Part shown: positions 1-63,334 of the stretch, in pieces | Position numbering within the stretch: the first letter of the stretch is position 1 | Layout: each line of letters begins with the position of its first letter | IMG/VR virus record: IMGVR_UViG_3300022555_002641 | Coordinates: 32,001-96,000 of that record | Length of the DNA: 64,000 bases | From: a virus | Direction: 5' to 3' (one strand) | The notes under the pieces: generated by a model | Told to the model about the DNA's origin: nothing | Database searches by the model: none | Seen by the model: the letters and a program-made list of their open reading frames with translations, nothing else | Program-made: the position numbers and the translations under genes

Positions 1-708
1 GCCGTTCAGGAAGAAGCAATCAGGACATTTATCAGGATCGCACCTGAAGTTCTTGTAGGTACAAGCAATGTAATGTTTTCTCGTTTATTTAATATTCCAG
101 CACACGGCACACAGGCGCACGAGTGGTATATGTTTCATGCTGTGAAGTATGGTGTTCAAATGGCTAATCGTATGGGGCTTGGACGCTGGGTTGATGTTTA
201 TCATGGAGCCTTGGGTACTGCGCTATCAGATACATTTACTACCGATGTGTTTTTACGAGATTTTGATTTATTCTTTGCAAAGCTATTTGATGGACCACGC
301 CAAGATTCTGGAAATCCTGTTACATTTGCAGAAAAAATGATCAAACATTATCGTGATATGAACATCACAATTCCTATTACTTTTTCTCATGGTAAAACTG
401 CATTTATACCAAAAACTATTGTTTTTTCCGACTCAATTGATAGCCATGAAAAAATAGATAACATTGAAGAAGCTGTATTTGAAAAAATATTATCTGCTTA
501 TGGTATTGGGGTTTGGATTTCTTTTGATATTGTCGATTTGGCAGGGGTTAAAATTAAGCACATAAACATGGTAATTAAAATGACCTCAGCCAAACCAGAT
601 GATAAAATGCCTTGGGGTGACTGTGTCAAATTGTCAGACTCCGCTGGAAAACATACAGGCAATCAAAAAACAGTTGAATTATATAAAACCCAACTTGGTA
701 TTGAATAA
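1..708 (+). CDS. pncB: nicotinate phosphoribosyltransferase (5'-truncated by window edge)
   Basis: Frame is open from position 1 (AVQEEAIR...GTSNVM). NAPRTase motifs GTSN, GTQAHEW, RQDSG, FSDS, GIG and VKLSDSAGK. Confidence 0.9.
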   Translation, partial: AVQEEAIRTFIRIAPEVLVGTSNVMFSRLFNIPAHGTQAHEWYMFHAVKYGVQMANRMGLGRWVDVYHGALGTALSDTFTTDVFLRDFDLFFAKLFDGPRQDSGNPVTFAEKMIKHYRDMNITIPITFSHGKTAFIPKTIVFSDSIDSHEKIDNIEEAVFEKILSAYGIGVWISFDIVDLAGVKIKHINMVIKMTSAKPDDKMPWGDCVKLSDSAGKHTGNQKTVELYKTQLGIE

Positions 709-950
709 TGTGGCTCGATTTTGAAAGATTTAAAACTGCTGGAATAAAAAATATTTCTCTTAGCTATCTTAATTCAAAAGAAAATAACATTACTATTGAT
801 TTTTTGGATGATACTCCTCAATTTTCAATTAATCTTCCAGCTAAAGACGATTACTGGGATTTTACAGAAAAATACATATTCGAAAGAATGAAAAAACTTA
901 AAGCTGAAGAACGAAAAAATAAATTAAACCAAATATATAATTTACACTAA
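708..950 (+). CDS. hypothetical protein with C-terminal RxxKLxxI motif
   Basis: Start overlaps the pncB stop (TAATG); ends ERKNKLNQIYNLH. Confidence 0.75.
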   Translation: MWLDFERFKTAGIKNISLSYLNSKENNITIDFLDDTPQFSINLPAKDDYWDFTEKYIFERMKKLKAEERKNKLNQIYNLH

Positions 951-957
951 AATAATT

Positions 958-1251
958 ATGTCAAACACAGATGAAGAAATAAAAACATTAGCTGACATTC
1001 TTGCCGAAAATGGCATTGAATCTGAAGAAACATGGCGGCTCATTTTATGGAATGATAGTGTTAATTCATTTGAACATGTTATTGTATGTTTAGTTATTGT
1101 ATTAAAGTTTACCCCGCAGCAAGCTGAGCAATCCGCTTGGACTGTACATCTTCAAGGTAAAGACGTTATTAAAAGTGGTTCAAAAGAATCTCTTGAACCA
1201 TATAAAAAACTTCTCGAAGAGATGGAGCTTACGCTTACCATTGAACAGTAA
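958..1251 (+). CDS. clpS: ATP-dependent Clp protease adaptor ClpS
   Basis: LILWNDSVNSFEHVIVCL...QQAEQSAWTVHLQGK, typical ClpS core. Confidence 0.9.
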   Translation: MSNTDEEIKTLADILAENGIESEETWRLILWNDSVNSFEHVIVCLVIVLKFTPQQAEQSAWTVHLQGKDVIKSGSKESLEPYKKLLEEMELTLTIEQ

Positions 1252-1277
1252 TTGTTCAAAAAAAATAATTAAATATT

Positions 1278-1520
1278 ATGATAGCATTTATTGCTAAATA
1301 TATGTTGTATATTTATACTACGTATATCCAAGAAGATTTTGACATTTATAAAAAATGGGCATTACCTTTTATATATGCTGTATGGTTTATTCGTGGCATA
1401 TATATTTGGATTGGTTCCATAATATTTTTTCCGCTTTTTTACTTGGGTATGATTTTTGATAACAGTAATATGAAAAAAATGATCGAAGAGTACGCATCAT
1501 ATTTTTCAGAAATGTTGTAA
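1278..1520 (+). CDS. small membrane protein
   Basis: Hydrophobic central segment. Confidence 0.6.
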   Translation: MIAFIAKYMLYIYTTYIQEDFDIYKKWALPFIYAVWFIRGIYIWIGSIIFFPLFYLGMIFDNSNMKKMIEEYASYFSEML

Positions 1521-1537
1521 AAAAGATTATTTTTTTG

Positions 1538-1545
1538 TACATTTG
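1538..1545 (+). promoter_or_regulatory. Bacteroidota-type -7 promoter box (TAnnTTTG) upstream of clpC
   Basis: TACATTTG in the intergenic gap; the same box recurs before many genes (see findings). Confidence 0.6.
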
Positions 1546-1594
1546 CTAATATAATAAAGAATATATAAAAACTCAAACAAAAACTAACTAAAAA

Positions 1595-4147
1595 ATGAAA
1601 CATTCAAAAGATTTCGAAAAAGTTATTGCTGATAGCAAAAATATCGCTATCAATTACAAATCATCGACAATTAAGCCAGAGCATCTTTTTTTGGCTATGA
1701 TTGAAAATACTGGAAGCAAGGCTCACAATATTCTTTATGATACGCAAGTTAATATTGATGCAGTTAAGGATACTGTTATCAATGTATTGAAAGCATCGCA
1801 AGAATCAACATTCACATCTAAATCCAAAATTTCATTGGATGATAAAAGCAGTAAAATTCTCATAGATAGTGAAAAAATTGCTAAAGAGCTGAAAGATGAA
1901 GAAGTTGACACCCAGCATATCTTATATGCATTATTAGATAAGGAACCTAACCCGCCATTTTCAAATCTTATTCATGAATTATTCAGTAAAGTTCCACCAA
2001 TTTATATGGTGATCAAAGCCAAAATAAAAGGTGAATTTGATGATAGCTCAGCAGCTTATGGTGAAGATGATCATGATCCAGACAGTGAATTCGAAGAAAA
2101 ACCAGATAGAAGCAATTCTAAGAAAACCACAAAAATGATTGACTTGTATGGTACAGATTTAACCAAACTTGCCAAGGAAGGTAAATTAGACCCAGTCATT
2201 GGTCGCAAGCCTGAAATAAAAAGAATTTCTCAGGTTCTTGCTCGTAGGAAAAAGAATAACGCATGTCTGGTTGGCGAACCTGGGGTTGGCAAAAGTGCCA
2301 TTGTAGAAGGATTAGCCCAGCTTATTCTTGATGGAGCGGTTGCCGAAACATTGAAAAATAAGCGGATTGTAACCCTTGATATGGGTGCGCTTGTTGCTGG
2401 AACAAAATATCGTGGAGAATTCGAACAGCGTCTCAGGGGGATCATTAAAGAAATGGAAGAAAATAAAAATATCATTCTTTTCATCGATGAAATCCACACT
2501 ATTATTGGTGCTGGTAGTGCTCAGGGGTCACTTGATGCATCCAATATGTTGAAACCAGCGTTATCACGTGGAAGTTTCCATTGTATTGGTGCAACAACGC
2601 TTGATGAGTATCGTAAGTATATTGAGAAAGACGGAGCGTTGGAAAGACGTTTTCAGAAAATTCTTGTAGAACCTACAACCAAATCTGAAACTGTGGATAT
2701 TTTGAATAATATCAAAAACAGATATGAAGATCATCACCTTGTTACTTATACAGATGAAGCTATTTTAGCTTGTGTGGATTTAACAGATAAATATATGTCT
2801 GATAAAATGATGCCAGATAAAGCTATTGACGCATTAGATGAGTCTGGTGCAAAAGTTCATGTTAACAGGACTGTTAGAACACCAAAGAAAATTGAAGTTA
2901 TTGAGAAGAAAGCTAAAGAGGCTGAAACACAGAAACTGCTCTGTGTGAAAACTCAAAGATTCGAGGATGCTGCTGGTTATCGTGATCAGGAGCGTAATCT
3001 TCTTGATGAACTTGAAAAAGAAAAAGAAGTTTGGAAAAAAGAGCAAAATAACAACCGTGATCTTGTCACGAAAGATGATGTTGCTGAAGTTGTTGCGCTT
3101 ATGACAAAAATCCCAGTTGATAACGTATCTTCTGATGAAAATACAAAGCTCAAAAATATGGCTGTCAAAGTCAAGAGTGTTGTTATTGGACAGGATGATG
3201 CAGTTGACAAAGTTGTTCGTGCAGTTAAACGTGCCAGAATGGGTATTAAAGACCCGAAAAAACCAGTTGGTAACTTCATGTTTTTGGGACCGACTGGTGT
3301 TGGAAAAACATACTTAGCCAAAATCATGGCGAAAGAATTGTTCGGTTCAGAAGATGCGCTTGTTCGTATTGATATGACAGAATACATGGAAAAACACGAA
3401 GTTTCTCGTTTGATTGGATCACCTCCAGGATACGTTGGTCACGAAGATGGTGGACAATTAACAGAAGCCATCAGGCGCAGACCGTATTCGATTATCCTTT
3501 TCGATGAAATTGAAAAAGCACACCCAGATGTATTCAACATTTTACTTCAAATGCTTGATGATGGTGTTCTTACGGATAACATCGGTCGCAGGGTAGATTT
3601 CCGCAATACTATCATAATCATGACATCGAATGTCGGTTCAAGAAAAGTTAAGGAATTTGGAATGGGAATTGGATTTTCAGTTGCCGATCCAGACAATATC
3701 ATTAACAAACAGGCTATCGTTCAGAAAGAATTGAAAAAAATGTTTAGCCCAGAATTCTTGAATCGTGTTGATGAAGTTATTATGTTCAATTCCTTAGGTA
3801 AAGAAGAGGTTATCAAGATTGTTGATGTTGAACTTAAGACCACAATTCAACGTCTGAAGGATATTGGATATGACATAAGTGTTCCGCAATCCATGAAAGA
3901 CTTCTTGTTCGAAAAAGGCTGGGATAAGGAAATGGGCGCAAGACCACTTAAAAGAGCCATTCAAAAGTGGGTTGAAGATACTTTGGTTGATGCTATCATC
4001 AATGAGGAAATCAAATCTGGTGATCGCATATCAATGCGGTACGATAAGAATAAATCTACAGTTGTTCTTGTTAAATTAAACAAGGATGACGGTGAATTGG
4101 ATATGGAAGCTACGGTTGATTTAATTCCAGCGGCACCAGCAAATTAA
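1595..4147 (+). CDS. clpC: ATP-dependent Clp protease ATP-binding subunit ClpC
   Basis: Clp-N repeats, two AAA+ modules ([16 protein letters not shown]), short UVR-type middle domain ([13 protein letters not shown]) and IGF ClpP-docking loop (GMGIGFS). Confidence 0.93.
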
Positions 4148-7129: not shown

Positions 7130-7813
7130 ATGGCTTCATCCACCGCAACTGGAGATTTCGATTTGTTCGGAATTTATAATACAACCACGATACCAACAAC
7201 CACCACAGTCCCAATTCCAACGTCATCAATACCAGCAGTAACTATAGTTTCACCAAATTATTTAATGCTTACTGGTAGCACAGGATTATATTCTATAGGA
7301 ACTGCAATTAATAATGTAGCCATAAATGGTATTTTTAGCCCGTCAACCACATATAGTACAAATTATATTTTTGGAACTGATCCATACGAGAATGAACTTA
7401 AAAATCTGACCTATGGAATAATGGTGGATGAACGATATTATGCTGAATTGGCAGATAATATTAAGGCAATAAAGAATAATAAAATGATATTCTGTTGTAA
7501 TATTATAAATAATAGAATAGTGCCATACGAATTAATAATGAGACTAATTGCGGATAAAGAAAAATTTGCAATGAAAATTTCAGTGACTAATCCAGTTGAT
7601 GGGTATCCTTTGTTTAATATCAATTATACTAATTTCAGATTTACTAAAATAGTAAATAATCTAAAATTTTCTAATAAATGTGATTTTACAGAATTGATTG
7701 TTAAATTCAAATATGATAAAGTAACTTGCGAAAATAGAAGATTAACTTTAAAACAAAAAAGAACAGATAAATTAAATAAAATATTCAAAGATGAATCCAC
7801 AGATTTCAGTTAA
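7130..7813 (+). CDS. hypothetical protein with C-terminal RxxKLxxI motif
   Basis: T/S-rich N-terminus; ends KRTDKLNKIFKDESTDFS. Confidence 0.7.
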   Translation: MASSTATGDFDLFGIYNTTTIPTTTTVPIPTSSIPAVTIVSPNYLMLTGSTGLYSIGTAINNVAINGIFSPSTTYSTNYIFGTDPYENELKNLTYGIMVDERYYAELADNIKAIKNNKMIFCCNIINNRIVPYELIMRLIADKEKFAMKISVTNPVDGYPLFNINYTNFRFTKIVNNLKFSNKCDFTELIVKFKYDKVTCENRRLTLKQKRTDKLNKIFKDESTDFS

Positions 7814-8054
7814 ATCAAGATATAGTCTGGCGAATATAAATCCGTCTTTCTATAGTACATTACCATTGAATAGTGGCACATCCATTGGCACTAAAGGAGG
7901 CGGAATTGGTCAAGGATATGTTTTCGTCCCTTATATTTTAGTTAATTCAAGTTCTGTTATTGTTGACGGTAAAAATTCCGAAATGCTAAGAAGAATTCGA
8001 ATAACGGCACTTAGAAAAGAAAGAAAAGAAAAAATAAACAAATTAAAATGGTAA
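7791..8054 (+). CDS. small protein with GYVFVPYI segment and C-terminal RxxKIxxL motif
   Basis: GYVFVPYI resembles the gp23-like G-x-x-Y-x-P-Y motif; ends RKERKEKINKLKW. Confidence 0.65.
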   Translation: MNPQISVKSRYSLANINPSFYSTLPLNSGTSIGTKGGGIGQGYVFVPYILVNSSSVIVDGKNSEMLRRIRITALRKERKEKINKLKW

Positions 8055-16950: not shown

Positions 16951-17879
16951 TGAACTTAGATAGTAAGATTTATGTCGCTGGGCATCGTGGGTTAGTTGGT
17001 AGTGCAATAGTTAGAAAATTAAATAGTGATGGCTTCACGAATGTTGTCACGGCTACCCACAGTGAGTTAGATTTAAGAGACGATGCAAGTGTAGCTCATT
17101 TTTTTGATTGGGTTACACCAGATTATGTATTTCTTGCTGCCGCTAAAGTTGGCGGTATTGTTGCTAACAGTACATACCCAGCAGAATTTATCTATAATAA
17201 TTTAATGATACAAAGTAATATCATACATCAATCATATAAACATAATGTTAAAAAATTATTATTTTTGGGATCAAGTTGTATTTATCCAAAACTTTGCCCA
17301 CAGCCAATCAAAGAAGAATATTTGATGAGTGGATATCTTGAGCCAACAAACGATGCGTATGCTATTGCTAAAATTGCTGGAATCAAAATGTGTCAAAGTT
17401 ATAATAAACAATATGGTACAAATTTTATATCGTTGATGCCAACAAATTTATATGGTCCTAATGATAACTACGATTTAAATAGTTCTCATGTTTTACCAGC
17501 AATGTTGTCAAAATTTCATTTTGCTAAAACTAATGAATTAAGTGAAGTGAATCTCTGGGGGACAGGAACACCCAGACGTGAATTCTTGCATGTTGATGAT
17601 TTGGCTGACGCTTGTTTATTTTTAATGGATAAATATGATGATAGTGAAATTATCAATGTTGGTACTGGTGAAGATATTTCAATTGCTGAACTGGCTGCAA
17701 TGATCAGAGAAATTGTGGGATTTAAAGGTAGTGTTATATTTGATGCCTTAAAACCAGATGGTACACCAAAAAAATTATTAGATGTCAGCAAATTATCCAA
17801 ATTAGGCTGGAAATATTCAATTAAATTAAAATACGGTATAACTCAAGTTTATAATGAGCACTTTAATGAAAAGAATTGA
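16950..17879 (+). CDS. fcl: GDP-L-fucose synthase
   Basis: [57 protein letters not shown]. Confidence 0.95.
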
Positions 17880-18159
17880 TCAAAATACTTATAGTTTAAT
17901 GGCGATAGATGTTATTGGAAAGGAATGTAGACATTACTTTCATATATTTCCAGATGCCGTACTAATTTCTAAAAAACTATTACCTAAAAGGTTTCGTATT
18001 CGTCCGACATATTTCGGATATGCTAAATGGGAGATGAACTGCAAGGATGATATTCTTATTGGAAAAAATGAGAATATAATACCTTACAATTATGATTATA
18101 TTGTTCAGAAATTAGAACAGGAAGAAAGAAAGTGTAAATTAAATAAAATATGGAAATGA
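17866..18159 (+). CDS. hypothetical protein with C-terminal RxxKLxxI motif
   Basis: Ends [12 protein letters not shown]. Confidence 0.7.
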
Positions 18160-18207
18160 AGTATTTCAAAGCTGTTTGTATATGAAGTATTTCAAAGCTG
18201 TTTGTAT
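18156..18207 (+). repeat. 26-bp perfect tandem duplication of a gene start
   Basis: atgaagtatttcaaagctgtttgtat at 18156-18181 and 18182-18207. Confidence 0.95.
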
Positions 18208-18409
18208 CTGTCAAGATGAATATAGAAAATTCGTTAAAAATCAAGTATATGAATGTTGGTATGAATCATCTATATTCGGTTCATATGATATAGCTGTTGC
18301 GAGGCAAGGCGATTTTCCATATGGATTAAAAGAAGAAAATTTTAAAAAATATTTTATCAAATTAACAGAATTCAGAAAGCTAAAACTTCAAAAAATAAAT
18401 AGTATTTAA
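18182..18409 (+). CDS. small protein with C-terminal RKLKLQKI motif
   Basis: [10 protein letters not shown]...FKKYFIKLTEFRKLKLQKINSI. Confidence 0.7.
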   Translation: MKYFKAVCICQDEYRKFVKNQVYECWYESSIFGSYDIAVARQGDFPYGLKEENFKKYFIKLTEFRKLKLQKINSI

Positions 18410-34883: not shown

Positions 34884-35214
34884 ATCTTTGTTGTATTTTC
34901 TTTTTTTTGTATTCTTTATCAAACTCACGATATAATGCACGTTCTTCCTTTGTCGCCAAATGATAACAACCATTTGTTAAAACTGTGGATGTCGAATCAC
35001 AAAATTTTTTAAAATCGCCATACCATCCACCATCATCAATAACATATCCCTCAAAATCGCACATCCCTGTTGGTGTACTTGCGGTTTCTCGTCTTTTACG
35101 AACTAATTTAGAAAGAGTTATAAATCGATCTGGATACTCAACTCTAAAAATATCCCCACTCCGTATATTACGAACTGAATTTATAATTCTTTCAAATGTT
35201 TTAATATATTTCAT
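34873..35214 (-). CDS. hypothetical protein, N-terminal MKYIKTFE and C-terminal KIQQRFDL
   Basis: TATATA box upstream at about 35221. Confidence 0.75.
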   Translation of the reverse strand: MKYIKTFERIINSVRNIRSGDIFRVEYPDRFITLSKLVRKRRETASTPTGMCDFEGYVIDDGGWYGDFKKFCDSTSTVLTNGCYHLATKEERALYREFDKEYKKKKIQQRFDL

Positions 35215-37601: not shown

Positions 37602-37636
37602 ATTAAAAATTTTGATTATATTTGCAAAAATATAAT

Positions 37637-38140
37637 ATGTCATTAACACCATTTCCATCCGTGTCACGACCAGAAAAACGAATCCCAATTGTAATGAAGC
37701 ACATTGATTGGGCAGATTTCATAAACGAATTAGGTTTTACTTTATCTGAAGAAGAAAAGGATAAAATAGTATTGAATTGCCAAATACGATATAATGATAT
37801 TTTTACTAAATGGAAGGAATCACCAGATTTAAGATTGACTCAGGTGCTTGCCACATTGGAAATAGTCCCCAATTTTGCGGGTGGTTGGTTCTATATTGAA
37901 GAATCTGACTATATGGTCAGAAAAAACTTTATTAAGCCAGAAGAAATTTTATTCTGGGGATCATATGGAAAAAGTGGAAAACTTGAAGATTTTCATTGGG
38001 TGCTTATTAATGATATGGAAACTAAACATATTGAAAATTGCCTTTCTACACAAAAAAATATGAAACCTGTTTACAGGCAAGCAATGACCAATGTTTTGCG
38101 AAAAAGAAAAATAGCACATCTTAATGACAGCGAGGACTAA
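37637..38140 (+). CDS. hypothetical protein with C-terminal RKRKIAHL
   Basis: RPEKRIP, WKESPDLRLTQVL, WGSYGKSG...DMETKHIENCL. Confidence 0.7.
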   Translation: MSLTPFPSVSRPEKRIPIVMKHIDWADFINELGFTLSEEEKDKIVLNCQIRYNDIFTKWKESPDLRLTQVLATLEIVPNFAGGWFYIEESDYMVRKNFIKPEEILFWGSYGKSGKLEDFHWVLINDMETKHIENCLSTQKNMKPVYRQAMTNVLRKRKIAHLNDSED

Positions 38141-39165: not shown

Positions 39166-39540
39166 ATGGATTTAATCAAAAAAATAAATAGCCAAGAGGT
39201 TCGATCTAAGACTCAAATTGAACGAAGACGAATGCTAAAAGATAAAATTCTACAGCGGTCACAAAGTAGAATTGGACTGAGTGTAATTTGTTTTGAAAAT
39301 GAAGGTATAGAATCAGACCAAACGTTTATGTATAAACGTGCGTTTATACCCTATAAGACAATTCCAAAAAAAGTCCCATTAACAATTGGTAAATTTTATA
39401 CAATTTTGGAAATTAAAAAAGATGAAATAAAAGTAAAAAATGACTTGGGTAAGAAAGTGTGGTATACGATTAAAAGATTTTTATATACCATAAAATATGA
39501 ACGTTGTGAAAAACTAAAAAATATAATTCAAAATGTCTGA
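39166..39540 (+). CDS. small beta-barrel-like protein with C-terminal RxxKLxxI
   Basis: LTIGKFYTIL...KNDLGKKVWY; ends ERCEKLKNIIQNV. Confidence 0.7.
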   Translation: MDLIKKINSQEVRSKTQIERRRMLKDKILQRSQSRIGLSVICFENEGIESDQTFMYKRAFIPYKTIPKKVPLTIGKFYTILEIKKDEIKVKNDLGKKVWYTIKRFLYTIKYERCEKLKNIIQNV

Positions 39541-39733
39541 CGGTATAAGTGAATCAAGAAGGGGTACATATTTTTCAAGTTATAAATATGATTTTGAAAT
39601 AAAAAGTAAGTTATCAGAATTTGTAACTGATGATATTTTAAAAACTTGCCCAGAAGGTGTATCGAAAGATGCTTTCAAAGAATCAATAATTAACGCATTG
39701 TTTAACATTAATAAAAACACTCGAATAATATGA
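39533..39733 (+). CDS. hypothetical protein
   Basis: Coupled ORF. Confidence 0.6.
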   Translation: MSDGISESRRGTYFSSYKYDFEIKSKLSEFVTDDILKTCPEGVSKDAFKESIINALFNINKNTRII

Positions 39734-39909
39734 AAGGCTTTGATGACGACATATTTGACAGTTTAGATTTTGGTTCATTCGGAACTGGAAACGATTATGA
39801 AAAAATTGATTACGAGAAAATTTTGGAAGATATTCCAATATCCGAAATCGAAAAATTTTTAAGAAAGAAAAAATTAGAAACAATTAAAAATGGTAAAAAT
39901 AATAAATAA
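39730..39909 (+). CDS. 59-aa protein with RKKKLETI motif (not in ORF track)
   Basis: Manual translation MKGFDDDIFDSLDFGSFGTGNDYEKIDYEKILEDIPISEIEKFLRKKKLETIKNGKNNK*; ATGA overlap; paralogous to the next ORF. Confidence 0.7.
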   Translation: MKGFDDDIFDSLDFGSFGTGNDYEKIDYEKILEDIPISEIEKFLRKKKLETIKNGKNNK

Positions 39910-39910
39910 G

Positions 39911-40159
39911 ATGGATGATTTAAGTGATTTCTTTGACTATTGGAAAGTGGAGCCAACTAAACCTAAAAACTATGAGGATTTGGATGATTTGAAAGTGAGA
40001 CCTAAAAACCATGAGGATTTGGATGATATTTTTAATATGTCATATATGCCAATGTATGAAGAATATTTACAGCAAATAAAAAAGATTCCCATCCGTTTTT
40101 TGGAAAGATACATCAGAGAACAAAAAATACAAAATTTAAACAAACAAGATATAACATGA
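39911..40159 (+). CDS. acidic small protein with REQKIQNL motif
   Basis: Internal PKNxEDLDD duplication; tail IPIRFLERYIREQKIQNL. Confidence 0.7.
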   Translation: MDDLSDFFDYWKVEPTKPKNYEDLDDLKVRPKNHEDLDDIFNMSYMPMYEEYLQQIKKIPIRFLERYIREQKIQNLNKQDIT

Positions 40160-41524: not shown

Positions 41525-42292
41525 ATGAAAACAAATTTCAACGATTTCCAGTTAGACTCATATTTGATAGAAGACCTTTATCAGAATAAAAACAGGACTT
41601 TGAGTGAAATTGGAAAACGTTTCAATTGCTCTACCGACAAAGTAATTGAATCTATAACTGAAAAGGGTCGAATAAACTACGAACAACAAATAAAAAATCC
41701 AACAGTTTATAGTCAATTAAAAAATTTCATTGAGACTGAAATTGACCCATATTGCAATAGTACTTTGATGCCAGTACTGGATACTTTCAAACTTTTTCGT
41801 TGGAAAGAATATACAGTTGCAAAAAATATTAGAACTACGGAATATGAGTTTAACTTTACACCATCACGATATGGGATGAGTGGATTTGGTGCATCTATAA
41901 GCTTTTTTGTTGTCGAAGAAAAGGATACAAAAGTGATTATAGATTGTTATTTTGAACTTAACATTTTTGGTTACAATTATAAAAAAATAGCTGGAAAGGA
42001 TCATGCAAAACTCATAACCGATATTACAGATCATAACTTAAAGCAAATGTTCAATTTGAGTAGGTTATCTGAAGATAAGAAAATTGAAATGTATATTGAC
42101 CAAATTAATATTGATATAATCAGAAAAATCGCAAAGAAAAATATACAAGGTATGGTAGGTGATATTGATTCAGCATCAGATGAAGATGTAAGAGAAGCGT
42201 TGAAAGAATTTATCTATGAGGACGAAACCTATTCTACACCAATAAAAAAATCTGTTTTAGCACAAGCAAAAAAATTAGGAATAACCGTATGA
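41525..42292 (+). CDS. hypothetical protein (possible N-terminal HTH)
   Basis: RTLSEIGKRFNCS. Confidence 0.65.
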   Translation: MKTNFNDFQLDSYLIEDLYQNKNRTLSEIGKRFNCSTDKVIESITEKGRINYEQQIKNPTVYSQLKNFIETEIDPYCNSTLMPVLDTFKLFRWKEYTVAKNIRTTEYEFNFTPSRYGMSGFGASISFFVVEEKDTKVIIDCYFELNIFGYNYKKIAGKDHAKLITDITDHNLKQMFNLSRLSEDKKIEMYIDQINIDIIRKIAKKNIQGMVGDIDSASDEDVREALKEFIYEDETYSTPIKKSVLAQAKKLGITV

Positions 42293-42678
42293 AAGTAACT
42301 AAAGAAATATTATTCATGAGTGGATATGATATGCGAGAGATTGCAACTAAAATAGTTACTAATAAAGCAACAGATTTCACAAAAAAATTAAAGGGTAGGT
42401 ATAAAAAATTCATGTCTGATGAATTTATTATCGCTTACATTACTTATAAATTTGTAGATTTGTATGTGGAGTATTGGGGTAAAGGTGTTAGAACTCCCAA
42501 TGCCATAAATATTGCCTATGATTCAACAATAGAACTTTTTGAAAATATTCTTGAGCATCGTTGTCATGCAACTGGTAATGGGCATCATGTTGCTCAAATG
42601 TTTTCTGGTTATTTTGAAGATGCATTAATAACTGACAAAGAACTTAGAAAATTAAAATTACAAAAAATCGAATTATGA
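42289..42678 (+). CDS. hypothetical protein with C-terminal RKLKLQKI
   Basis: GNGHH motif; ends ELRKLKLQKIEL. Confidence 0.7.
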   Translation: MKVTKEILFMSGYDMREIATKIVTNKATDFTKKLKGRYKKFMSDEFIIAYITYKFVDLYVEYWGKGVRTPNAINIAYDSTIELFENILEHRCHATGNGHHVAQMFSGYFEDALITDKELRKLKLQKIEL

Positions 42679-46337: not shown

Positions 46338-46535
46338 ATGAAAAATATATGGTTGATCATTTTTGATGAAGTTTACAATTTAACAAATATTGCTATATTT
46401 TTTATAGTTTTTTTTGTTACTTGGATATTTTCAACATTTACTGGAGCTTGCAGTGCAACATTTGCAGTGCTAATTTTGGTTATAATTGGAGCTTATGTGA
46501 AAGTTGTATTTAAAGAATATGAAGAAAATGAATAA
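46338..46535 (+). CDS. small membrane protein
   Basis: Two hydrophobic segments. Confidence 0.6.
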   Translation: MKNIWLIIFDEVYNLTNIAIFFIVFFVTWIFSTFTGACSATFAVLILVIIGAYVKVVFKEYEENE

Positions 46536-46857
46536 AGATGACATCTATAGGGTTGCCATATTTATGATTGTAAAGCCCCCAAAGGATGCGTGGACGACCG
46601 CACATGGGTATTCAGTTGGTGATGACATTAGACTACCATTTGATCATGCAGTGGAAAGCTTCAAAAATGGTAAACAAGTCACAATGCAACTTGGGCAAGG
46701 AGATGGGTGTTGTTTTGAAGCTGATGAATTAGAACTTGTAGAAATTAGTTACTCAAGGAAGTGGGTTGCTAAACCATCTGAGGAAGAATTAGAAGAAATG
46801 CTTATTGCCCAAGGTAATATCCAACGCCTTAGAAAATTAAAGTTGAAAAAATTATGA
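46528..46857 (+). CDS. hypothetical protein with C-terminal RKLKLKKL
   Basis: Ends QRLRKLKLKKL*. Confidence 0.7.
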   Translation: MNKDDIYRVAIFMIVKPPKDAWTTAHGYSVGDDIRLPFDHAVESFKNGKQVTMQLGQGDGCCFEADELELVEISYSRKWVAKPSEEELEEMLIAQGNIQRLRKLKLKKL

Positions 46858-47632: not shown

Positions 47633-48004
47633 AATAAAATATGAATACTGGGCAGTTGAATATTCATTGATTTATGAATTTAGTGAATTTTTAAAAAATG
47701 AATATACAGTGAATTACAACATGGTAGTGATCCATATGCATTTAGTATTGTAAGTGCTGTATCGCCTTATACAAAAATTCCAATTGATTATTTTTATGTT
47801 ATTTTAACATTCCAAGATAATGAAGATGGGACACAAATCTTGTCTGATGGGCATAATTTATTTAGTAAAGGAACATGCGGTAAGGTAAATACAAGAGTAT
47901 CGTTTGATATTCAATTGAATCCATATTTTAAAAATAGAAATTGGAAAAAATATGACACCAAATTTTCAAGAAAATATAAACTAATAAGATTAAATAATAT
48001 ATAA
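47622..48004 (+). pseudogene. frameshifted or non-ATG-start gene carrying the C-terminal RKYKLIRL motif
   Basis: Open frame 47702-48004 (100 codons, no ATG) ends SRKYKLIRLNNI*; an upstream GTG ORF (47622) is in another frame. Confidence 0.45.
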
Positions 48005-48731: not shown

Positions 48732-49289
48732 ATGAAAGTAGTAGATGATATATTATTGAATTTAAAGTTTCCACCACAAATGGTGTTGGTAATATCTAAT
48801 AATTCTAATGCTTTATTGAACACTCTTTGTGATTCTATTTATAAAAGTTATTCTGGACCAAAATGTATTATCGAGAATCAAAAAGGATTGCTTAGAAAAA
48901 TTCATAAGATTCAAAATAAATTAGTTTATGTTAATGTTGATTTATCAAAAATTCAATTGAGTAGTTCACAGAACACAAATTCATTATTGAGAGATTTTGA
49001 TAACTTGAAAACATTTATTTGTGAATCGCATAATATTTTGGTATTAAAGTTAAGCCTTAGAAAATTTAACCCACCACCCAGAGACACAGTACCTCAGCGT
49101 GGTTGGAACTGGGATCGTGAATATGATAGATTTGTAAGAGCTATTATTCCATTTGAAAATAGTATTGATAGAATATATTATATCGAAAAAGATGGAATTT
49201 ATCTTAGTAGATATGGTGATACTCCAAAATATTCAATTGATCAGCTTGTTCGGTATAGTAAATTGAAAAAAATAAAGCGGAGTTTATAA
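48732..49289 (+). CDS. hypothetical protein with C-terminal RYSKLKKI
   Basis: TATCTTTG box upstream. Confidence 0.7.
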   Translation: MKVVDDILLNLKFPPQMVLVISNNSNALLNTLCDSIYKSYSGPKCIIENQKGLLRKIHKIQNKLVYVNVDLSKIQLSSSQNTNSLLRDFDNLKTFICESHNILVLKLSLRKFNPPPRDTVPQRGWNWDREYDRFVRAIIPFENSIDRIYYIEKDGIYLSRYGDTPKYSIDQLVRYSKLKKIKRSL

Positions 49290-51135: not shown

Positions 51136-51137
51136 TT

Positions 51138-51569: not shown

Positions 51570-51617
51570 AATTAATTAATTGTTTTTAATTGAAATATAT
51601 ATTAAATGTGGTAGGTC

Positions 51618-51655: not shown

Positions 51656-51668
51656 GAAAAATAACTAT

Positions 51669-51896: not shown

Positions 51897-52007
51897 AGGG
51901 ATTTGGAGTTAATTTTTGGAGTTTTTTGATTATAAACAGAAAAAAGTATAAAGTTTAGTTTTTTATTGAATATTTTTTTATTATCTTTGAATTAAATATT
52001 GAAACCT

Positions 52008-52598
52008 ATGACAAAGGATAAAAGAAAATTGTTAGTTGATATGTTCCTTGCGGAAAATGAAAAGGAAAAATTATTCAGGAATATGACTGATGGTGAGTAT
52101 TTTATAAAGTACACAAATGAAAATTTCGACATTAGAAGAAACCTTTTTTATAATACGTTACACGCTGTAAAATATAAACCAAACCATCATCGATATCCAT
52201 CCAGTAATTTGGATATTGATCAGCAACGTCTTATTAAAAGGTTTTATTTTAAACCTATTGTACCTATAGCACTTATATTAATCGTTGGACTTCTATATAT
52301 AATATCTCAGCCAACTTCTGTTTTTGGCAAATTGCTTGGAGATTACATATTTATTTTGAAATCCTTCGTAGTACCTATGCTTACTACATACTTTTTAATT
52401 TTTATATATGATCGAATTATCAATCGTAAAATATTTAAAAAGTTTAAAGATATAAAGAACGCTATGCTTGATAACGCACAACACATTGAAAATAGTAAAG
52501 ACAATGAATTTGTTGACGAGTTAATCAATAATAATATAGCTTATTATCGGAAGCTTAAACTTGACAGATTAAATAAGAATGCTGGTTCCAGATGTTGA
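52008..52598 (+). CDS. two-TM membrane protein with C-terminal RKLKLDRL
   Basis: Two hydrophobic helices; ends YRKLKLDRLNKNAGSRC. Confidence 0.7.
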   Translation: MTKDKRKLLVDMFLAENEKEKLFRNMTDGEYFIKYTNENFDIRRNLFYNTLHAVKYKPNHHRYPSSNLDIDQQRLIKRFYFKPIVPIALILIVGLLYIISQPTSVFGKLLGDYIFILKSFVVPMLTTYFLIFIYDRIINRKIFKKFKDIKNAMLDNAQHIENSKDNEFVDELINNNIAYYRKLKLDRLNKNAGSRC

Positions 52599-52866
52599 TA
52601 ATTTACCTAAGAAGGTTATATGTGTAAAAGATGTAAAGAATTCTAAAGGTGAAGTTTTGGTTAAAAAAGGTAGTACTTTTATATGTGAATATGATGATGG
52701 TGGTGGCTATTGGAAACGTAACGGAGCAACAACCCCGACAATATTTGTAACACTTATAGGAATTCCTGAATTGAAGTTTGCCCATCATTGGCAATCAAAT
52801 TGGACGGAGTTTGAAGATTTGGATGAAAATAGAAAACAAAAATTGGCACAATTACAAAAAAAATAA
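52579..52866 (+). CDS. small protein with C-terminal RKQKLAQL
   Basis: KKVICVKD...; ends ENRKQKLAQLQKK. Confidence 0.7.
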   Translation: MLVPDVDNLPKKVICVKDVKNSKGEVLVKKGSTFICEYDDGGGYWKRNGATTPTIFVTLIGIPELKFAHHWQSNWTEFEDLDENRKQKLAQLQKK

Positions 52867-52920
52867 ACTTTTTAGTTAATAATTAATATATTTATAAATC
52901 AAATCAAAACAATTAAGACA

Positions 52921-55645: not shown

Positions 55646-56177
55646 ATTTATTATTGTCGAGGCCCCAAATGAGTCCAAACTTACTGGGAAATGTATAAAG
55701 GTCTTTATTGCTGGAGGTATCAGCAACTGCCCTGATTGGCAAACTGATCTTATATCTCGTTTAAAAAAAGATAAACGACTAAAAAACTGCGGTACAGTAA
55801 AAATATTAATATTTAATCCACGAAGAAAAAATAAACCAAGGGTTGATGAAACTGAAGCTCAGGTTACTTGGGAATTTTTTAATTTAAACAAATCGGATAT
55901 TATAAGTTTTTGGTTCTCCGAAGGGTCTTTGAATCCAATTGTATTGTTTGAATATGGTCGGATTCTTGCGGCACCCAACCGCTGGAAAAAAAGTGTTATA
56001 GTTGGATGTCATGAAAAATATGGAAGACGCACAGATGTGATCATACAAACTAAATTGATTGAGCAATCCAGATTCAGGCACCCAGAAATTGAAGTTAAAA
56101 ATACGTTTGAAGATTTTGCAAACGAATTAATAGAAAGTATAGTTAATCACATAATAAGGCATAATTTTATTACATGA
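55632..56177 (+). CDS. nucleoside 2-deoxyribosyltransferase-like protein
   Basis: VFIAGGISNCPDWQ, FNPRR, QVTWE, PIVLFEYG. Confidence 0.8.
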   Translation: MDSSKFIIVEAPNESKLTGKCIKVFIAGGISNCPDWQTDLISRLKKDKRLKNCGTVKILIFNPRRKNKPRVDETEAQVTWEFFNLNKSDIISFWFSEGSLNPIVLFEYGRILAAPNRWKKSVIVGCHEKYGRRTDVIIQTKLIEQSRFRHPEIEVKNTFEDFANELIESIVNHIIRHNFIT

Positions 56178-56998
56178 AATCAACGTGGCTCATAGAAAAA
56201 GATTTATTTGAAGATACTGAAATCGATTTAATTGGAACGGTTAAAAGACTTGGCTATCCAATTAAAGTTGTTAAGTATATTCCTATGGATGATGATTTGT
56301 CGTGGCTTGAGCGCATGTTTAAGCCTGAAGACTGCGTTATTTATTATGGGTCATTGAATCTTGGATTAAAGATAAAAAAATTCGGATGGATTCCAGGTTG
56401 TTACGGAACCATTGAAAAATATTCTTGTACAAATTATTATCCATATTTTGGTATCAATCACATCAACAGTGAATACCAAGTTATGACATATGGCGAATTA
56501 CTTTTGAAAAAAGTTGAACTTTTTAGCAAAAATAATGTTATCTTTGTTAGACCAAATAGCATTTTAAAAGAATTCACTGGAATGGCGGTATCTGAATATA
56601 ATTTTGACAGAGCCTATGCGCTTATGGGATTTTACAATGATGTTGTATCTTCCGATCTTCCAATTATTGTATCCACAGTAAAGGAAATAAAAAAAGAATG
56701 GAGATTCGTTGTTATCGGTAGTACTATAATTTCAGGAAGCTTATATCGGTCTGGTGATGATGATAAGACACTACATGAACCATGCACTGACCATCAAGCA
56801 TTAGAATTTGCAAAAGAAATGGCAAAATTATATCAGCCAGATAATGTTTGGGTTCTGGATATTTGTTTATCCAATCTTGGATATAAAGTTATGGAAATTG
56901 GCTGTTTTTCGTTTGCTGGTTTGTATGGTGGTGATCTCGATGTAATTGTTGAAAAAGTATCAAACACTGCGATTGATGAAAAAATGGGAAGAACTTAA
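56174..56998 (+). CDS. ATP-grasp domain protein (DUF4343-like)
   Basis: FVRP...KEFTG, EWRFVV, WVLDIC...VMEIG...AGLY. Confidence 0.75.
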   Translation: MKSTWLIEKDLFEDTEIDLIGTVKRLGYPIKVVKYIPMDDDLSWLERMFKPEDCVIYYGSLNLGLKIKKFGWIPGCYGTIEKYSCTNYYPYFGINHINSEYQVMTYGELLLKKVELFSKNNVIFVRPNSILKEFTGMAVSEYNFDRAYALMGFYNDVVSSDLPIIVSTVKEIKKEWRFVVIGSTIISGSLYRSGDDDKTLHEPCTDHQALEFAKEMAKLYQPDNVWVLDICLSNLGYKVMEIGCFSFAGLYGGDLDVIVEKVSNTAIDEKMGRT

Positions 56999-57325: not shown

Positions 57326-58015
57326 ATGAATGAATTTCAAAAATTTGCTATTGGGCACAGTTTCTGCGGACCTGTCGCTATTGCCAAATATACTCAGGCT
57401 GTCAATTCAATTGCGGCTGGTTATATTTCACCGACCATTATTGAGGAACGTCAGTTAAATGTTGCTCAGATGGACGTTTTCTCCAGATTGATGATGGATC
57501 GTATCATATTTTTGGGGACTGCCATCGATGATACAGTCTCAAATATTATTCAGGCACAACTTCTTTTTCTTGAGTCAACAGACCCAACAAAAGATATCAT
57601 GCTTTATTTGAACACACCAGGTGGCGGAGTTCACGCTGGACTTGGCATCTACGACACCATGCAGTATATCACGCCTGAGGTCGCAACTATCTGCACTGGA
57701 ATGGCTGCTTCAATGGGAGCCGTTCTTATGTGTGCTGGTGCCAAAGGAAAACGCAAAGCACTCCCTCATGCACGTGTGATGATTCACCAGCCAATGGGAT
57801 ATGCTGAGGGTCAAGCAACTGACATGCAAATTAGCGTCAATCAGGTCAACATTCTGAAGAAGGAATTGTATAATATAATTTCTATTCATTCTGGTAAAAC
57901 GTATGATGAAGTATACGCTGATTCAGAGCGTGATTACTGGATGACCGCTGAGGAAGCTAAAGCTTACGGAATGGTGGATGAAGTTCTCATCAAAAGTAAG
58001 CGTGAAGAAAAGTAA
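57326..58015 (+). CDS. clpP: ATP-dependent Clp protease proteolytic subunit
   Basis: MDVFSRLMMDRIIFLG, GMAASMG (catalytic Ser), MIHQP (His), ERDYWM (Asp); Bacteroidota-style N-terminus. Confidence 0.96.
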   Translation: MNEFQKFAIGHSFCGPVAIAKYTQAVNSIAAGYISPTIIEERQLNVAQMDVFSRLMMDRIIFLGTAIDDTVSNIIQAQLLFLESTDPTKDIMLYLNTPGGGVHAGLGIYDTMQYITPEVATICTGMAASMGAVLMCAGAKGKRKALPHARVMIHQPMGYAEGQATDMQISVNQVNILKKELYNIISIHSGKTYDEVYADSERDYWMTAEEAKAYGMVDEVLIKSKREEK

Positions 58016-61076: not shown

Positions 61077-61328
61077 ATGAAAAAAGTTGCATTAAGTATC
61101 CTTGTAGTTTTAGCTCTTGCAGTTGTTTCTTGCGGTCCTTCACAGAGTGAGATCGCTGAGAAAGCCAAAGCTGATTCTATTAAATTAGCCGATTCAATCG
61201 CTTTAGTTAATACCAAAGCTAAGATTGTTGCTGATTCTATCGTAAAAGCAGATTCTATCAAGAAAGCTGATTCAATCGCTAAGATCAGTGTGAAGGAAGT
61301 AAAAAAGGCTAAAAAAGGTAAGAAGTAA
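61077..61328 (+). CDS. small lipoprotein with five ADSI repeats
   Basis: Lipobox VVSC; own promoter and terminator. Confidence 0.8.
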   Translation: MKKVALSILVVLALAVVSCGPSQSEIAEKAKADSIKLADSIALVNTKAKIVADSIVKADSIKKADSIAKISVKEVKKAKKGKK

Positions 61329-61341
61329 ATTTCCTTCAGCC

Positions 61342-61381
61342 AAAAAAAAAGGAACGGATTTAATTTCGTTCCTTTTTTTTT
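61342..61381 (+). terminator. intrinsic terminator
   Basis: A-run GGAACG...CGTTCC T-run. Confidence 0.8.
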
Positions 61382-61413
61382 ATTTTTGCATAAAAAATGA
61401 TTAACTTTACAAT

Positions 61414-61785
61414 ATGAAAGAATATAGACTTTTCCTTGATGATTATAGAGTCCCATTGGACTCTTTTGGTATTACACGAAATCCTATCTACAAAGAAAAA
61501 TGGATTATTGTAAGAACATATGAAGATTTTTTAAAAACAATTTCGCATTATGGCATTCCAACTATGGTTAGTTTTGATCACGATCTTGTTGATGAGCACT
61601 ATAAAGTTGTGAATGAAAGCCAGTGGGAAGAATATCATAAAAACCCAGCACATCAGCCAACTGGATACGATTGCGCACTTTGGTTAAAAAGATATTGTTC
61701 ATTTAATAATTTACCATTACCAGAATATTATATTCATAGTCTTAGCCAAGTTGGGGGCAAAAAAATAAGAAAACTATTAGGATAA
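61414..61785 (+). CDS. cyclic-phosphate-processing receiver-like domain protein
   Basis: LFLDDYR, VSFDHDL, TGYDCA, IHS. Confidence 0.7.
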   Translation: MKEYRLFLDDYRVPLDSFGITRNPIYKEKWIIVRTYEDFLKTISHYGIPTMVSFDHDLVDEHYKVVNESQWEEYHKNPAHQPTGYDCALWLKRYCSFNNLPLPEYYIHSLSQVGGKKIRKLLG

Positions 61786-61839
61786 TTTTTTTATTTGATT
61801 AATAATCAATATATTTGTATTTAACCAAAAAATACAACT

Positions 61840-62742
61840 ATGAAAATAGGTATTCTAAAAGGTATTAAAAGTTGGCTTTTCGATAAACTTCACGACATTA
61901 ATTCATATCCTGAAGATCAAGAGTTAAGACGGGATATAGAAATTTATGATCATCTTTTACCGCATCTTATTGCTCTACAAAAAAGAATCCTTCCAGCTAA
62001 AATAAAATACTTTTTTAAGCATGAACCAACATTTTTTATAAAGTTTATTCTTAGAATATTATTAAGAGTTTTGATATGGTTATCTGGAATAGCCGCCCTT
62101 GGCGTTGTAGTTGTGGCTGTTGGGGTGTTATTTTTTCACCTTAAAATAAATCTTAAGACTGAGCCAATTAAAGTTGATAATCGTGAGCTTTTAATTTATG
62201 TTCCAAATGTTGGCGTGAAAGAAACTGATTCACTTAACATGGTTTTCTATAAATCAAAAATCAAATCCAAAGCAAAGTTTGTGTGGCTATATGTTAGTAC
62301 ACCAACAAAAACATACGATAAATGGGCAAACGATCTTTGCGGTCTTGAGTCTAAGGATTGGTCAAACCCTTATATTGCCAGAAGGGATGGAAGCCAGTAT
62401 TGGGGAAAATATCAAATGGGCGAATCCGCACGTAAAGCGGTTAAGATGGAAAGATATACTTGGAGCGAGTGGCAAAAGAATCCAGCACTTCAAGAAGCCG
62501 CATTAAGATTGTGGGTTGACGTATTATATAATGAATTGTCTGATGATATTAAAAAATATGATGGTCAGTTTCTGAATGGTTGGCATATTACAACCTCTGG
62601 AATAATCGCTATGGCTCATAACGTGGGTCCTGCTCCAGTAAAAACTTTTCTTCATAGTGGAGGGTCAATCGTACCAAAAGACGGTTCTGGACGAGATGCG
62701 ACAAGATATTTGATATTGGGTGGGTATGATCTTAATTTTTAA
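61840..62742 (+). CDS. membrane-anchored lysozyme-like protein
   Basis: TM helix, then LES...YWGKYQMG...AMAHNVG...DGSG (lysozyme/transglycosylase-like). Confidence 0.6.
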   Translation: MKIGILKGIKSWLFDKLHDINSYPEDQELRRDIEIYDHLLPHLIALQKRILPAKIKYFFKHEPTFFIKFILRILLRVLIWLSGIAALGVVVVAVGVLFFHLKINLKTEPIKVDNRELLIYVPNVGVKETDSLNMVFYKSKIKSKAKFVWLYVSTPTKTYDKWANDLCGLESKDWSNPYIARRDGSQYWGKYQMGESARKAVKMERYTWSEWQKNPALQEAALRLWVDVLYNELSDDIKKYDGQFLNGWHITTSGIIAMAHNVGPAPVKTFLHSGGSIVPKDGSGRDATRYLILGGYDLNF

Positions 62743-62785
62743 TAAATATTTTTGAAAGTTTATGAAAGAATAGTATTTTTGCGAT

Positions 62786-63334
62786 ATGCAAGAAGAAGAA
62801 ATCACATTCGATGATGTTTTAAATCTTATTAAATCACCAGAGAAATCAGATAGAATAATTATTTTAAATGCTGAGGTTATCAGTTCATCATTTATGTGCT
62901 TTCTTAATAGTATTATAAATAGATTTGAGGATAGTAAATTTGTTCATGAATTAAATGATTATTTCATGCCCATCAACAAATTTACAGTAATTGAATTGGA
63001 TGAAATTAAACTGAGTGGGTTCCCAAATACACTGCAATATAGTGAGCCTATTTATAAAGCAAAACGGTTATCTTCATTATTTAGAATTTGGAATAACTTA
63101 TGTATAGAGAAAAATATTAAATTGATGGTGATAACAAATAAGATGTGGGGGTTTAATAATGTTTCACCAATGGCAATGACATATCAGCCATATGCTATAC
63201 TTAATTACAGAACAGATAATAAAGTATATTTTCCAAAAGTTAATGATCCGAAATTTCAGCATGCCATGTTTGATGCAACTGTTTTTGCAAGACGGGCTAA
63301 AATGAATCAACTTAATGACAGAAACCAAATATAA
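62786..63334 (+). CDS. hypothetical protein with C-terminal RRAKMNQL
   Basis: TATTTTTG box upstream. Confidence 0.7.
   Translation: MQEEEITFDDVLNLIKSPEKSDRIIILNAEVISSSFMCFLNSIINRFEDSKFVHELNDYFMPINKFTVIELDEIKLSGFPNTLQYSEPIYKAKRLSSLFRIWNNLCIEKNIKLMVITNKMWGFNNVSPMAMTYQPYAILNYRTDNKVYFPKVNDPKFQHAMFDATVFARRAKMNQLNDRNQI

Follow-up and report, generated by a model that had tools for sequence, protein, structure and literature searches.

Why should many small proteins of a single virus, different in sequence over most of their length, end alike? The question is raised by a stretch of 64,000 nucleotides (nt), called the window here, which corresponds to bases 32001-96000 of a single virus record of 121,682 bp (IMG/VR record IMGVR_UViG_3300022555_002641, hereafter G000; ~30% G+C). 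A first-pass annotation of the window had listed 18 open reading frames (ORFs) sharing the motif R-x-x-K-[LIM]-x-x-[LI] close to the C-terminus. The motif was found in all 18, within 10 residues of the stop codon, 0-9 residues being interposed between the two. The motif is part of a real tag, portable and conserved, which is found across the clade and is under selection at the peptide level. The tag very probably acts as a helix for docking or addressing, with one shared, co-evolving partner as its reader.

The tagged ORFs are listed below by window position, with lengths in amino acids (aa). The start given is that of the longest ORF, and differs from the start in the first-pass annotation in seven cases (17854 vs. 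17866, 18176 vs. 18182, 37622 vs. 37637, 39890 vs. 39911, 46504 vs. 46528, 47840 vs. 47702, 51999 vs. 52008). G001, G003 and G004 are related virus records described further on.

708..950, plus strand: 80 aa, RKNKLNQI at nt 912-935, four residues before the stop; directly upstream of the ClpS-ClpC cassette; no PHROG or Pfam match
7130..7813, plus strand: 227 aa, RTDKLNKI at nt 7760-7783
7791..8054, plus strand: 87 aa, RKEKINKL at nt 8022-8045; tag kept in the G003 orthologue
17854..18159, plus strand: 101 aa, RKCKLNKI at nt 18127-18150
18176..18409, plus strand: 77 aa, RKLKLQKI at nt 18374-18397
36495..37382, plus strand: 295 aa, RKAKLNRL at nt 37347-37370; piece of a gp23-type capsid protein, the G004 homologue being tagged too
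37622..38140, plus strand: 172 aa, likely true start at ATG 37637, RKRKIAHL at nt 38099-38122; a hairpin resembling a terminator and a TAnnTTTG box stand ahead of it
39166..39540, plus strand: 124 aa, RCEKLKNI at nt 39502-39525
39730..39909, plus strand: 59 aa, RKKKLETI at nt 39862-39885
39890..40159, plus strand: 89 aa, REQKIQNL at nt 40115-40138
42289..42678, plus strand: 129 aa, RKLKLQKI at nt 42646-42669
46504..46857, plus strand: 117 aa, RKLKLKKL at nt 46831-46854, abutting the stop codon
47348..47632, plus strand: 94 aa, RKRKLAKI at nt 47588-47611; tag kept in the G001 and G004 orthologues; helix at residues 77-93 in a structural model
47840..48004, plus strand: 54 aa, RKYKLIRL at nt 47969-47992
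48732..49289, plus strand: 185 aa, RYSKLKKI at nt 49251-49274; TAnnTTTG box just upstream
51999..52598, plus strand: 199 aa, RKLKLDRL at nt 52548-52571; membrane segments predicted, alone among G000 carriers; TAnnTTTG box upstream
52579..52866, plus strand: 95 aa, RKQKLAQL at nt 52831-52854
62786..63334, plus strand: 182 aa, RRAKMNQL at nt 63290-63313

Two additional carriers were found among the 294 window ORFs of at least 40 aa:

33275..34171, minus strand: 298-aa protein of family phrog_29758, RALKLKNL at nt 33281-33304; same tail in the homologue of the huge phage LR756501 (66% identity)
46060-46203, antisense: 47-aa ORF which fits the motif and is probably spurious

The tail of the 298-aa protein, shared as it is with LR756501, is probably a conserved family C-terminus that fits the pattern by chance, and no tag.

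The abundance of the motif was measured in the entire G000 record. Genes were called greedily (translation table 11, ORFs of at least 40 aa, overlaps of at most 60 nt), a procedure which discards the tagged 39730-39909 ORF in favour of an antisense ORF. The motif lies inside the last 18 residues of 20 of the 179 genes called, and only three internal copies were found in about 36,000 internal positions (the proteins of the record total 38,656 residues). Shuffled tails matched 0.61 times on average in 5000 shuffles (maximum 5), 0.60 times in 500 (maximum 4), and 0.17 matches are expected from internal 18-aa windows. Neither N-terminal windows nor the reversed motif gave any match in G000. The comparison with shuffled and internal controls called for by the first-pass annotation (20 tails vs. 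0.6 in shuffles, with three internal copies) is thus in favour of a C-terminal signal. The motif is absent from all 32 G000 proteins of at least 300 aa, which bears out the earlier remark that recognizable enzymes are devoid of it; large structural proteins lack it as well.

Further copies were sought in other viruses. A degenerate DNA pattern for R-K-x-K-L-N-K-I hit at least 119 IMG/VR loci; among the matches listed, 94 lack a gene-end copy, and a dozen are copy-dense. Four AT-rich parent records (22-25% G+C) were taken in full: G001 (40 kb, CheckV completeness 6%), G002 (209 kb, 29%), G003 (73 kb, 10%) and G004 (330 kb, 46%). The completeness estimates point to genomes of roughly 700 kb. Structural proteins of G002 are 55-70% identical to those of G000, and a syntenic block is shared by G000 and G003. 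The counts in the five genomes are given below, together with those of a second tag described later.

G000: 179 genes called, main tag in the last 18 aa of 20, internal copies 3, second tag at the C-terminus of 2
G001: 98 genes called, main tag in the last 18 aa of 36, internal copies 0, second tag at the C-terminus of 0
G002: 428 genes called, main tag in the last 18 aa of 105, internal copies 15, second tag at the C-terminus of 57
G003: 160 genes called, main tag in the last 18 aa of 40, internal copies 5, second tag at the C-terminus of 10
G004: 623 genes called, main tag in the last 18 aa of 90, internal copies 21, second tag at the C-terminus of 93

Shuffled tails of G001-G004 gave 0.8-2.4 matches. 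In G000-G003 combined, 201 of 865 tails are tagged vs. 23 internal copies. Pairs of adjacent tagged genes exceed expectation in all five genomes, tagged genes being therefore clustered.

The motif is embedded in a longer consensus of ~16 residues, [YF]-F-x-x-[LI]-K-E-h-R-K-x-K-L-x-K-[LI]-N, the motif itself being followed by 0-10, mostly 3-6, residues. In the tails of G000-G003, position 0 is R in 201 cases and K in 40, position 3 K in 201 and R in 2, position 4 L in 173, I in 27, V and M in one each, position 7 L in 121 and I in 80 (F 1, A 1, K 2, T 1). On a helix, the Arg and the Lys at +3, invariant in the motif, would share a face with the two Leu/Ile positions. AlphaFold2 places a helix at residues 77-93 of the 47348 protein modelled with two orthologues, at a mean pLDDT of 52. 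The portable amphipathic helix proposed in the first-pass annotation is hence sustained as far as portability and selection as protein are concerned, the helix itself being predicted on a low-confidence model.

Carrier bodies are largely unrelated to each other, as had been noticed in the window. Upon removal of the tails, 142 of 200 bodies are BLAST singletons among carriers. Where bodies do match across genomes, the tag is kept in 157 of 167 pairs, lies further from the end in two, and is missing in eight, five of which involve LR756501; pairs are directed and include paralogue families, so the counts are dependent. Homologues thus keep the tail, and within these matches the tag is more conserved than the body (63.8% vs. 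49.6% identity). Aligned orthologues are available for three window carriers (7791, 39166 and 47348). In the G003 orthologue of 39166 the motif is kept and followed by 68 extra Cys-rich residues, and is therefore internal.

Recurrent sequences at gene ends may reflect DNA rather than protein, and the motif could be a by-product of recombination sites, promoters or signals for translation. The tag is A-rich, two 24-nt copies (family D15) are 88% identical, and ATA makes up 73% of the 106 Ile codons at motif position 7 in the five genomes, vs. 47% genome-wide (6 of 8 vs. 33% in G000 alone). The codons vary, however, Arg being encoded by AGA, CGA, CGG and CGT, Leu by TTA, CTT, TTG, CTA and CTC, with frequencies close to those of the genome (motif vs. 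genome: Arg AGA 0.83 vs. 0.75, Leu TTA 0.68 vs. 0.63, Lys AAA 0.93 vs. 0.90). Synonymous codon use inside the motif matches genome usage also in 271 further copies in the relatives. A 24-nt weight matrix built from the copies retrieved 25 sites, 18 of which are in-frame copies at gene ends, 3 intergenic or straddling a gene border, and 4 of other kinds. The distances from the motif to the stop codon and to the next start vary, Leu, Ile and Met interchange at position 4, and the nucleotide conservation independent of frame that a DNA repeat at gene ends should exhibit was not observed. Varied synonymous codons, and matrix sites found almost only in frame, indicate that selection acts on the peptide. 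Conservation at the protein level, which the first-pass annotation had deduced from the differing codons, is therefore well founded, and a nucleotide signal, close to refuted, is highly improbable.

Which proteins carry the tag? The median carrier length is 79-120 aa, and hydrophobic segments are found in 5-8% of carriers vs. 9-21% of untagged small proteins. Known families are rare. Of 20 window proteins compared to PHROGs (the tagged ones plus 32474-33292), 18 had no match, the others being the 298-aa protein mentioned above and the untagged 32474-33292 protein (phrog_5356). Ten window carriers searched against Pfam at E-values up to 5 gave chance-level matches only. Among the 148 largest carriers of G001-G004, five match Pfam families: DUF6794 twice, Tad3 (3.3e-34), ResIII and MazG once each. 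The Tad3 homologue is similar to inhibitors of the Thoeris defence. The 295-aa carrier (36495) found no relative except itself in an index of 5.8 billion proteins, and nothing was found by IMG/VR scans with either this carrier or the ligase. The 47348 protein hit only viral hypothetical clusters in the ESM Atlas. A profile of the tails, compared to the sequences in the Protein Data Bank (PDB), gave two chance-level matches and did not retrieve the scaffolding protein of phage P22. Relationships emerge with capsid proteins. The body of 36495 shares homology with the major capsid protein of LR756501, which is of the gp23 type, over residues 364-545 of the latter, and tagged pieces of this kind are encoded by 36495-37382, by G002 (103486-104340) and by G004 (245191-246072). 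The 7791 protein shows a weak, partly transitive likeness to the C-terminal end of the same capsid protein, and a tagged G001 protein matches the 807-aa gene adjoining the LR756501 capsid gene.

A helix shared by so many small proteins might need no external reader, and simply mediate their oligomerization, or cap and stabilize their folds. Its amphipathic character, the helix modelled at the end of the 47348 protein and the failure to find a reader would fit this role. Self-association is made less likely by a net charge of +4 to +5. R is strictly preferred to K at one position, and K to R at the other, unlike in a packing helix; the bodies are of unrelated kinds, and the 47348 model has low confidence. 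A purely intrinsic role is accordingly improbable.

The tag has dialects. In LR756501 (735 kb), the main tag was found in only one of the 596 genes encoded by the first 421 kb, and this is the coincidental tail of the 298-aa family. Instead, 21 of the 596 tails, vs. two internal sites, feature E-[FW]-K-N-h-[KR]-R-T-[KE]-L-[IM]-D-x-M-L, a helix of the same kind with the same leading Arg and other wording (loci L005 and L008-L027, clustered at ~216-223 kb and 274-278 kb). Yet another motif, D-P-Y-G-E-E-x-W, is found in this phage in 10 tails and at 35 internal sites, and the homologue of the tagged 7791-8054 protein in LR756501 ends in it. A second tag, [KR]-F-[ND]-[LIMV]-COOH (...A-x-K-F-N-[LI]), is exactly C-terminal and is found in 57 of 428 genes in G002 (loci L154-L164), 10 of 160 in G003 (L150-L153) and 93 of 623 in G004 (L165-L182). 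The two copies among the 179 genes of G000 read RFDL, one being carried by the following gene:

34221..34973, minus strand: ankyrin-repeat protein ending in RFDL-COOH, the form which the second tag takes in G000

One or the other tag is borne by about 29-38% of the genes of G002 and G004. No protein bears both, out of 291 carriers of the first and 162 carriers of the second.

Who reads the tag? A Clp-family unfoldase of the AAA+ class is the leading, if tentative, candidate, which in this phage would be its own ClpS/ClpC/ClpP machine. The presence of ClpC and ClpP genes had been noticed before, and the set is complete:

958..1251, plus strand: ClpS adaptor homologue, 97 aa (Pfam ClpS, 3.4e-16); candidate reader machinery
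1595..4147, plus strand: ClpC/ClpA-type double-ring unfoldase, 850 aa, with Clp_N domain, UVR motif and a G-I-G-F loop for docking to ClpP; candidate reader
57326..58015, plus strand: ClpP protease, 229 aa (Pfam CLP_protease, 2.4e-72)
56174..56998, plus strand: R2K-clade ATP-grasp protein, a predicted peptide ligase, adjoining ClpP; minor candidate reader

In addition to the occurrence of ClpS, ClpP and a ClpC with the IGF loop, the position of the tagged 708 gene directly upstream of ClpS is consistent with such a partner. The helix is borne by numerous accessory proteins, small, soluble and quick to evolve, which probably act in counter-defence or host takeover, and would tie all of them to one partner. 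Tagged proteins would come from earlier transcription units; the unfoldase would appear later, and the tagged proteins would then be captured and removed, or hand over the cargo bound to them.

Upstream motifs are in keeping with different times of expression. TAATATATA is found 18-27 nt upstream of most large structural genes (306, 652, 2290, 204, 1433 and 604 aa), ClpS and ClpC; it is missing ahead of the 649/1061-aa structural run. The fuller form of this promoter-like motif is TTTTAATATATA[GA] (e.g. window positions 7065, 1560, 932, 19700 and 31709), and AATATATA is found in 22 of 104 upstream regions vs. 1.5 expected. The motif also precedes the gene for the CCA-adding enzyme and two long ORFs, the N-termini of which look TnpB-like. 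Only 4 of the 20 tagged genes lie downstream of TAATATATA within a co-directional run. Four intergenic elements of 32-42 nt can be aligned at window positions 37594-37635, 44670-44711, 48698-48729 and 51960-51991, and feature an invariant TTAT.TTTG core 5-30 nt before the start codon. Three precede tagged genes and one an untagged gene, and one of the four comes after a hairpin rich in G+C and a run of T. The element is probably, to judge from its sequence, a host-type promoter with very short leaders, TAnnTTTG presumably being the -7 promoter box of Bacteroidota. Plain TAnnTTTG boxes upstream of genes are not clearly above chance, and the weight rests on the four aligned elements. Motifs alone suggest that tagged genes belong to an earlier class, served by the host polymerase, and the unfoldase to the class of structural genes.

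Several observations weigh against the capture of tagged proteins by a Clp machine. LR756501 has its dialect, and neither ClpP nor ClpS is encoded in its whole 735 kb, its ClpC-like protein lacking the IGF loop. This argues against the ClpCP of the phage as a general reader; of the first-pass proposal, the portable tag, protein-level and conserved, stands, and the degradation machine of the phage as its general reader is made less likely. No ClpC-like gene was found in the 651 kb of the four tag-rich fragments, and ClpP in G003 only; as G001-G004 are 6-46% complete, these absences are weak evidence. The tag lies 0-10 residues from the end, and is internal in one orthologue, unlike signals which depend on a free C-terminus. 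The extreme C-terminal position with a free carboxylate, typical of ssrA and MuA, is a feature of the second tag, not of the main one. ClpS reads N-termini, not C-termini. The promoter classes on which the timing would depend are themselves assigned by motifs.

The closest precedents are found among substrates and partners of Clp proteins. ClpX signals include two C-terminal classes, and the occurrence of an exactly C-terminal hydrophobic tag next to a basic one is reminiscent of them. Passages of PMC8138137 describe the degron RRKKAI of MuA, which is basic, C-terminal and recognized by ClpX, the XB tail of SspB and the ComK/MecA pair; these and ssrA are likewise short C-terminal peptides, some of them basic, which link unrelated proteins to one unfoldase. 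Unlike these degrons and tethers, the tag is a helix of ~16 residues, set back 0-10 residues from the end and once internal, is carried by 11-37% of the genes, and shifts in dialect between related phages, one of which has a dialect and lacks ClpP. ESCRT-III proteins end in MIM1 motifs, for which the N-domain of the AAA+ ATPase Vps4 is the reader. These motifs are similar in being C-terminal amphipathic helices with a central Arg and spaced Leu, present in several proteins and bound by the N-domain of an AAA+ protein, and different in being eukaryotic or archaeal and limited to one protein family. A single C-terminal docking module serving a single reader is found also in the poxvirus ankyrin proteins with a PRANC/F-box-like module, in dockerin-cohesin pairs, and in the cargo peptides of encapsulins and microcompartments. 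In these systems the reader is known, and the modules either exceed the tag in length (PRANC, dockerin) or attach to a shell protein, of which none was found in G000. A literature search retrieved no description of tags like those reported here in the main texts covered, in agreement with the first-pass statement that no function had been described.

The homology of several carriers to capsid proteins brings in another candidate reader, the inside of the procapsid. Bound to coat or scaffold, the helix would load small proteins into the head to be delivered with the DNA, as a C-terminal counterpart of the capsid-targeting sequence of T4. The latter is a short N-terminal peptide found on small hypervariable internal proteins, at least one of which acts in counter-defence, and is cut at L/I-x-E. 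Conserved short peptides on small accessory proteins are common to both systems, the tag being C-terminal here, and a site resembling [LIV]-x-E is found in register, at -4 to -2, in only 44 of 288 tags. The size of the T4 internal proteins, similarly small, is in favour of head loading, as are the tagged pieces of the gp23-type protein or of its 807-aa neighbour and the tagged Tad3 homologue; a capsid reader, moreover, would be present in every huge phage. A further likeness, though a short one, is to the tail of the gp8 scaffolding protein of P22, which ends in a basic helix (...DVETYRKLKAKLKGIR, ...ETYRKLKAKLKGIR). As passages of PMC9965877 report, Y292, R293 and K296 of this protein anchor it to the N-arm of the coat protein. 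The same Y-R-K-L-K string and R-x-x-K spacing are seen in the tag. The string YRKLK occurs in 11 of 1488 tails vs. one internal site, [YFW]RK.K in 44 tails vs. six internal sites. The C-terminal part of the P22 protein is also portable, and loads foreign cargo into P22 shells according to the relevant part of PMC9962691. Yet the P22 tail breaks the tag pattern at positions 4 and 7, its hydrophobic register being different after the Lys; it is found on one protein per phage rather than on hundreds, and belongs to a coat lineage other than the gp23 type, in which the tails of the T4 proteins gp22, gp68 and gp67 lack such a motif. The late or head-gene class of expression that such a role would call for is not seen in the carriers, since 16 of 20 tagged genes are not behind the TAATATATA motif of structural genes and TAnnTTTG boxes stand ahead of three, classes being told from motifs only. 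Finally, 14-37% of the genes would make a very large cargo list. Head loading, the main rival of a Clp reader, is, all considered, rather unlikely.

A docking helix might also address proteins to another hub or compartment of the phage, not recognized as yet. This could be a vault-like shell, a condensate, or a factory for replication or translation, and the second tag would be a second address. Relatives with core genes 45-58% identical use different dialects, which points to a fast-evolving reader encoded by the phage rather than to a conserved host hub. Two tags never found on one protein, and orthologous bodies with different tails in different phages, are features expected of addresses, and G002 encodes a protein similar to the major vault protein. 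This vault-like gene was seen in G002 only. No candidate reader was found, the proteins common to all genomes being enzymes (a HAD-like protein, the CCA enzyme, the R2K ligase, the cREC protein). Such a hub is a doubtful reader, slightly less so than the head. The HAD-like protein, 272 aa long and encoded by 40644-41462, had been considered as a reader and was rejected. Its DWDDN and SDDD motifs suggest a HAD-like enzyme, and more than 455 metagenomic homologues were retrieved. The protein is ~50% identical to these homologues, belongs to no Pfam family, and is a conserved core enzyme of huge phages.

The R2K-clade ATP-grasp protein listed above could use the helix as a recognition element, and modify the residues that follow it or the C-terminus itself. 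PMC4431377 predicts that R2K enzymes act as peptide ligases directed at proteins, and the 0-10 residues after the helix would be free to be modified. The gene is present in G000, G001, G003 and LR756501, adjoining ClpP in G000 and the loop-less ClpC-like gene in LR756501. This shared neighbourhood may be plain synteny, and the otherwise invariant Lys is lost in the LR756501 dialect. Recognition of the tag by this ligase is quite improbable.

Taken as a docking helix read by one shared partner, the tag may be one element of a larger scheme. Huge phages could conceivably run an address code at the proteome scale, made of two orthogonal C-terminal tags, with clade dialects that are swappable between orthologous bodies and readers outside the described targeting systems. 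Such a code would sort a rapidly changing stock of small proteins to separate fates under phage control; timed capture by an unfoldase would be one fate, and another, for example, the head. About one gene in nine in G000, and up to one in three in the relatives, ends in the same helix on otherwise unrelated small proteins. If a single helix decides the fate of a quarter of the proteins of a huge phage, hundreds of orphan genes would become one functional class predictable from sequence, and the reader would be the single point at which to study or block a whole accessory programme. The tag and its orthogonal companion would provide a ready-made portable handle for the control of proteins in Bacteroidota-type hosts, and the scheme a testable explanation for how huge phages create and manage many new small genes.

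G000 belongs to an uncultured freshwater phage, the own capsid gene of which lies outside this fragment. Among named phages, the published huge phages LR756501-4 are closest to it. Of the 179 proteins called in G000, 41 have matches in the first 421 kb of LR756501, structural proteins being 31-58% identical, and the GluRS-like protein of G000 is 45% identical to its LR756501 counterpart. Because of these protein matches, G000 is regarded as a fragment of a huge phage, the capsid lineage of which is of the T4 type (gp23). Megablast of window positions 36000-53000 against phages gave no match. DNA nearly identical to G000 was found in 11 DNA datasets from freshwater and lake metagenomes of five studies, one possibly the source, no RNA dataset being among those listed.

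G000 encodes, besides the ClpC/ClpA-type unfoldase and ClpP, an adenylosuccinate-synthetase-like protein and a hybrid histidine kinase. The record also encodes the CCA-adding enzyme, an S1 protein, a NAD ligase and a collagen-like fibre, and further products are ClpS, the R2K ATP-grasp, a cREC receiver domain, the ankyrin protein and an Acb3-like inhibitor of the CBASS defence. The latter (window 13312-14019; Pfam 4.2e-42) is untagged. Seven tRNA-Leu genes are all located outside the window. G002 encodes Cas3 and UvsW, in addition to the vault-like protein. A tRNA with the anticodon CUA, of the amber suppressor type, was detected in G002 (locus L155:3963-4034). TAG is the stop codon of 32 of the 271 tagged ORFs of G001-G004, and some ends of ORFs called with table 11 may accordingly be read through. 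At window 48025-48708 a release-factor-like gene is split by an in-frame TGA; its halves align with neighbouring stretches of LR756501 (64% and 53% identity), and the split arrangement may therefore be shared by the two phages.

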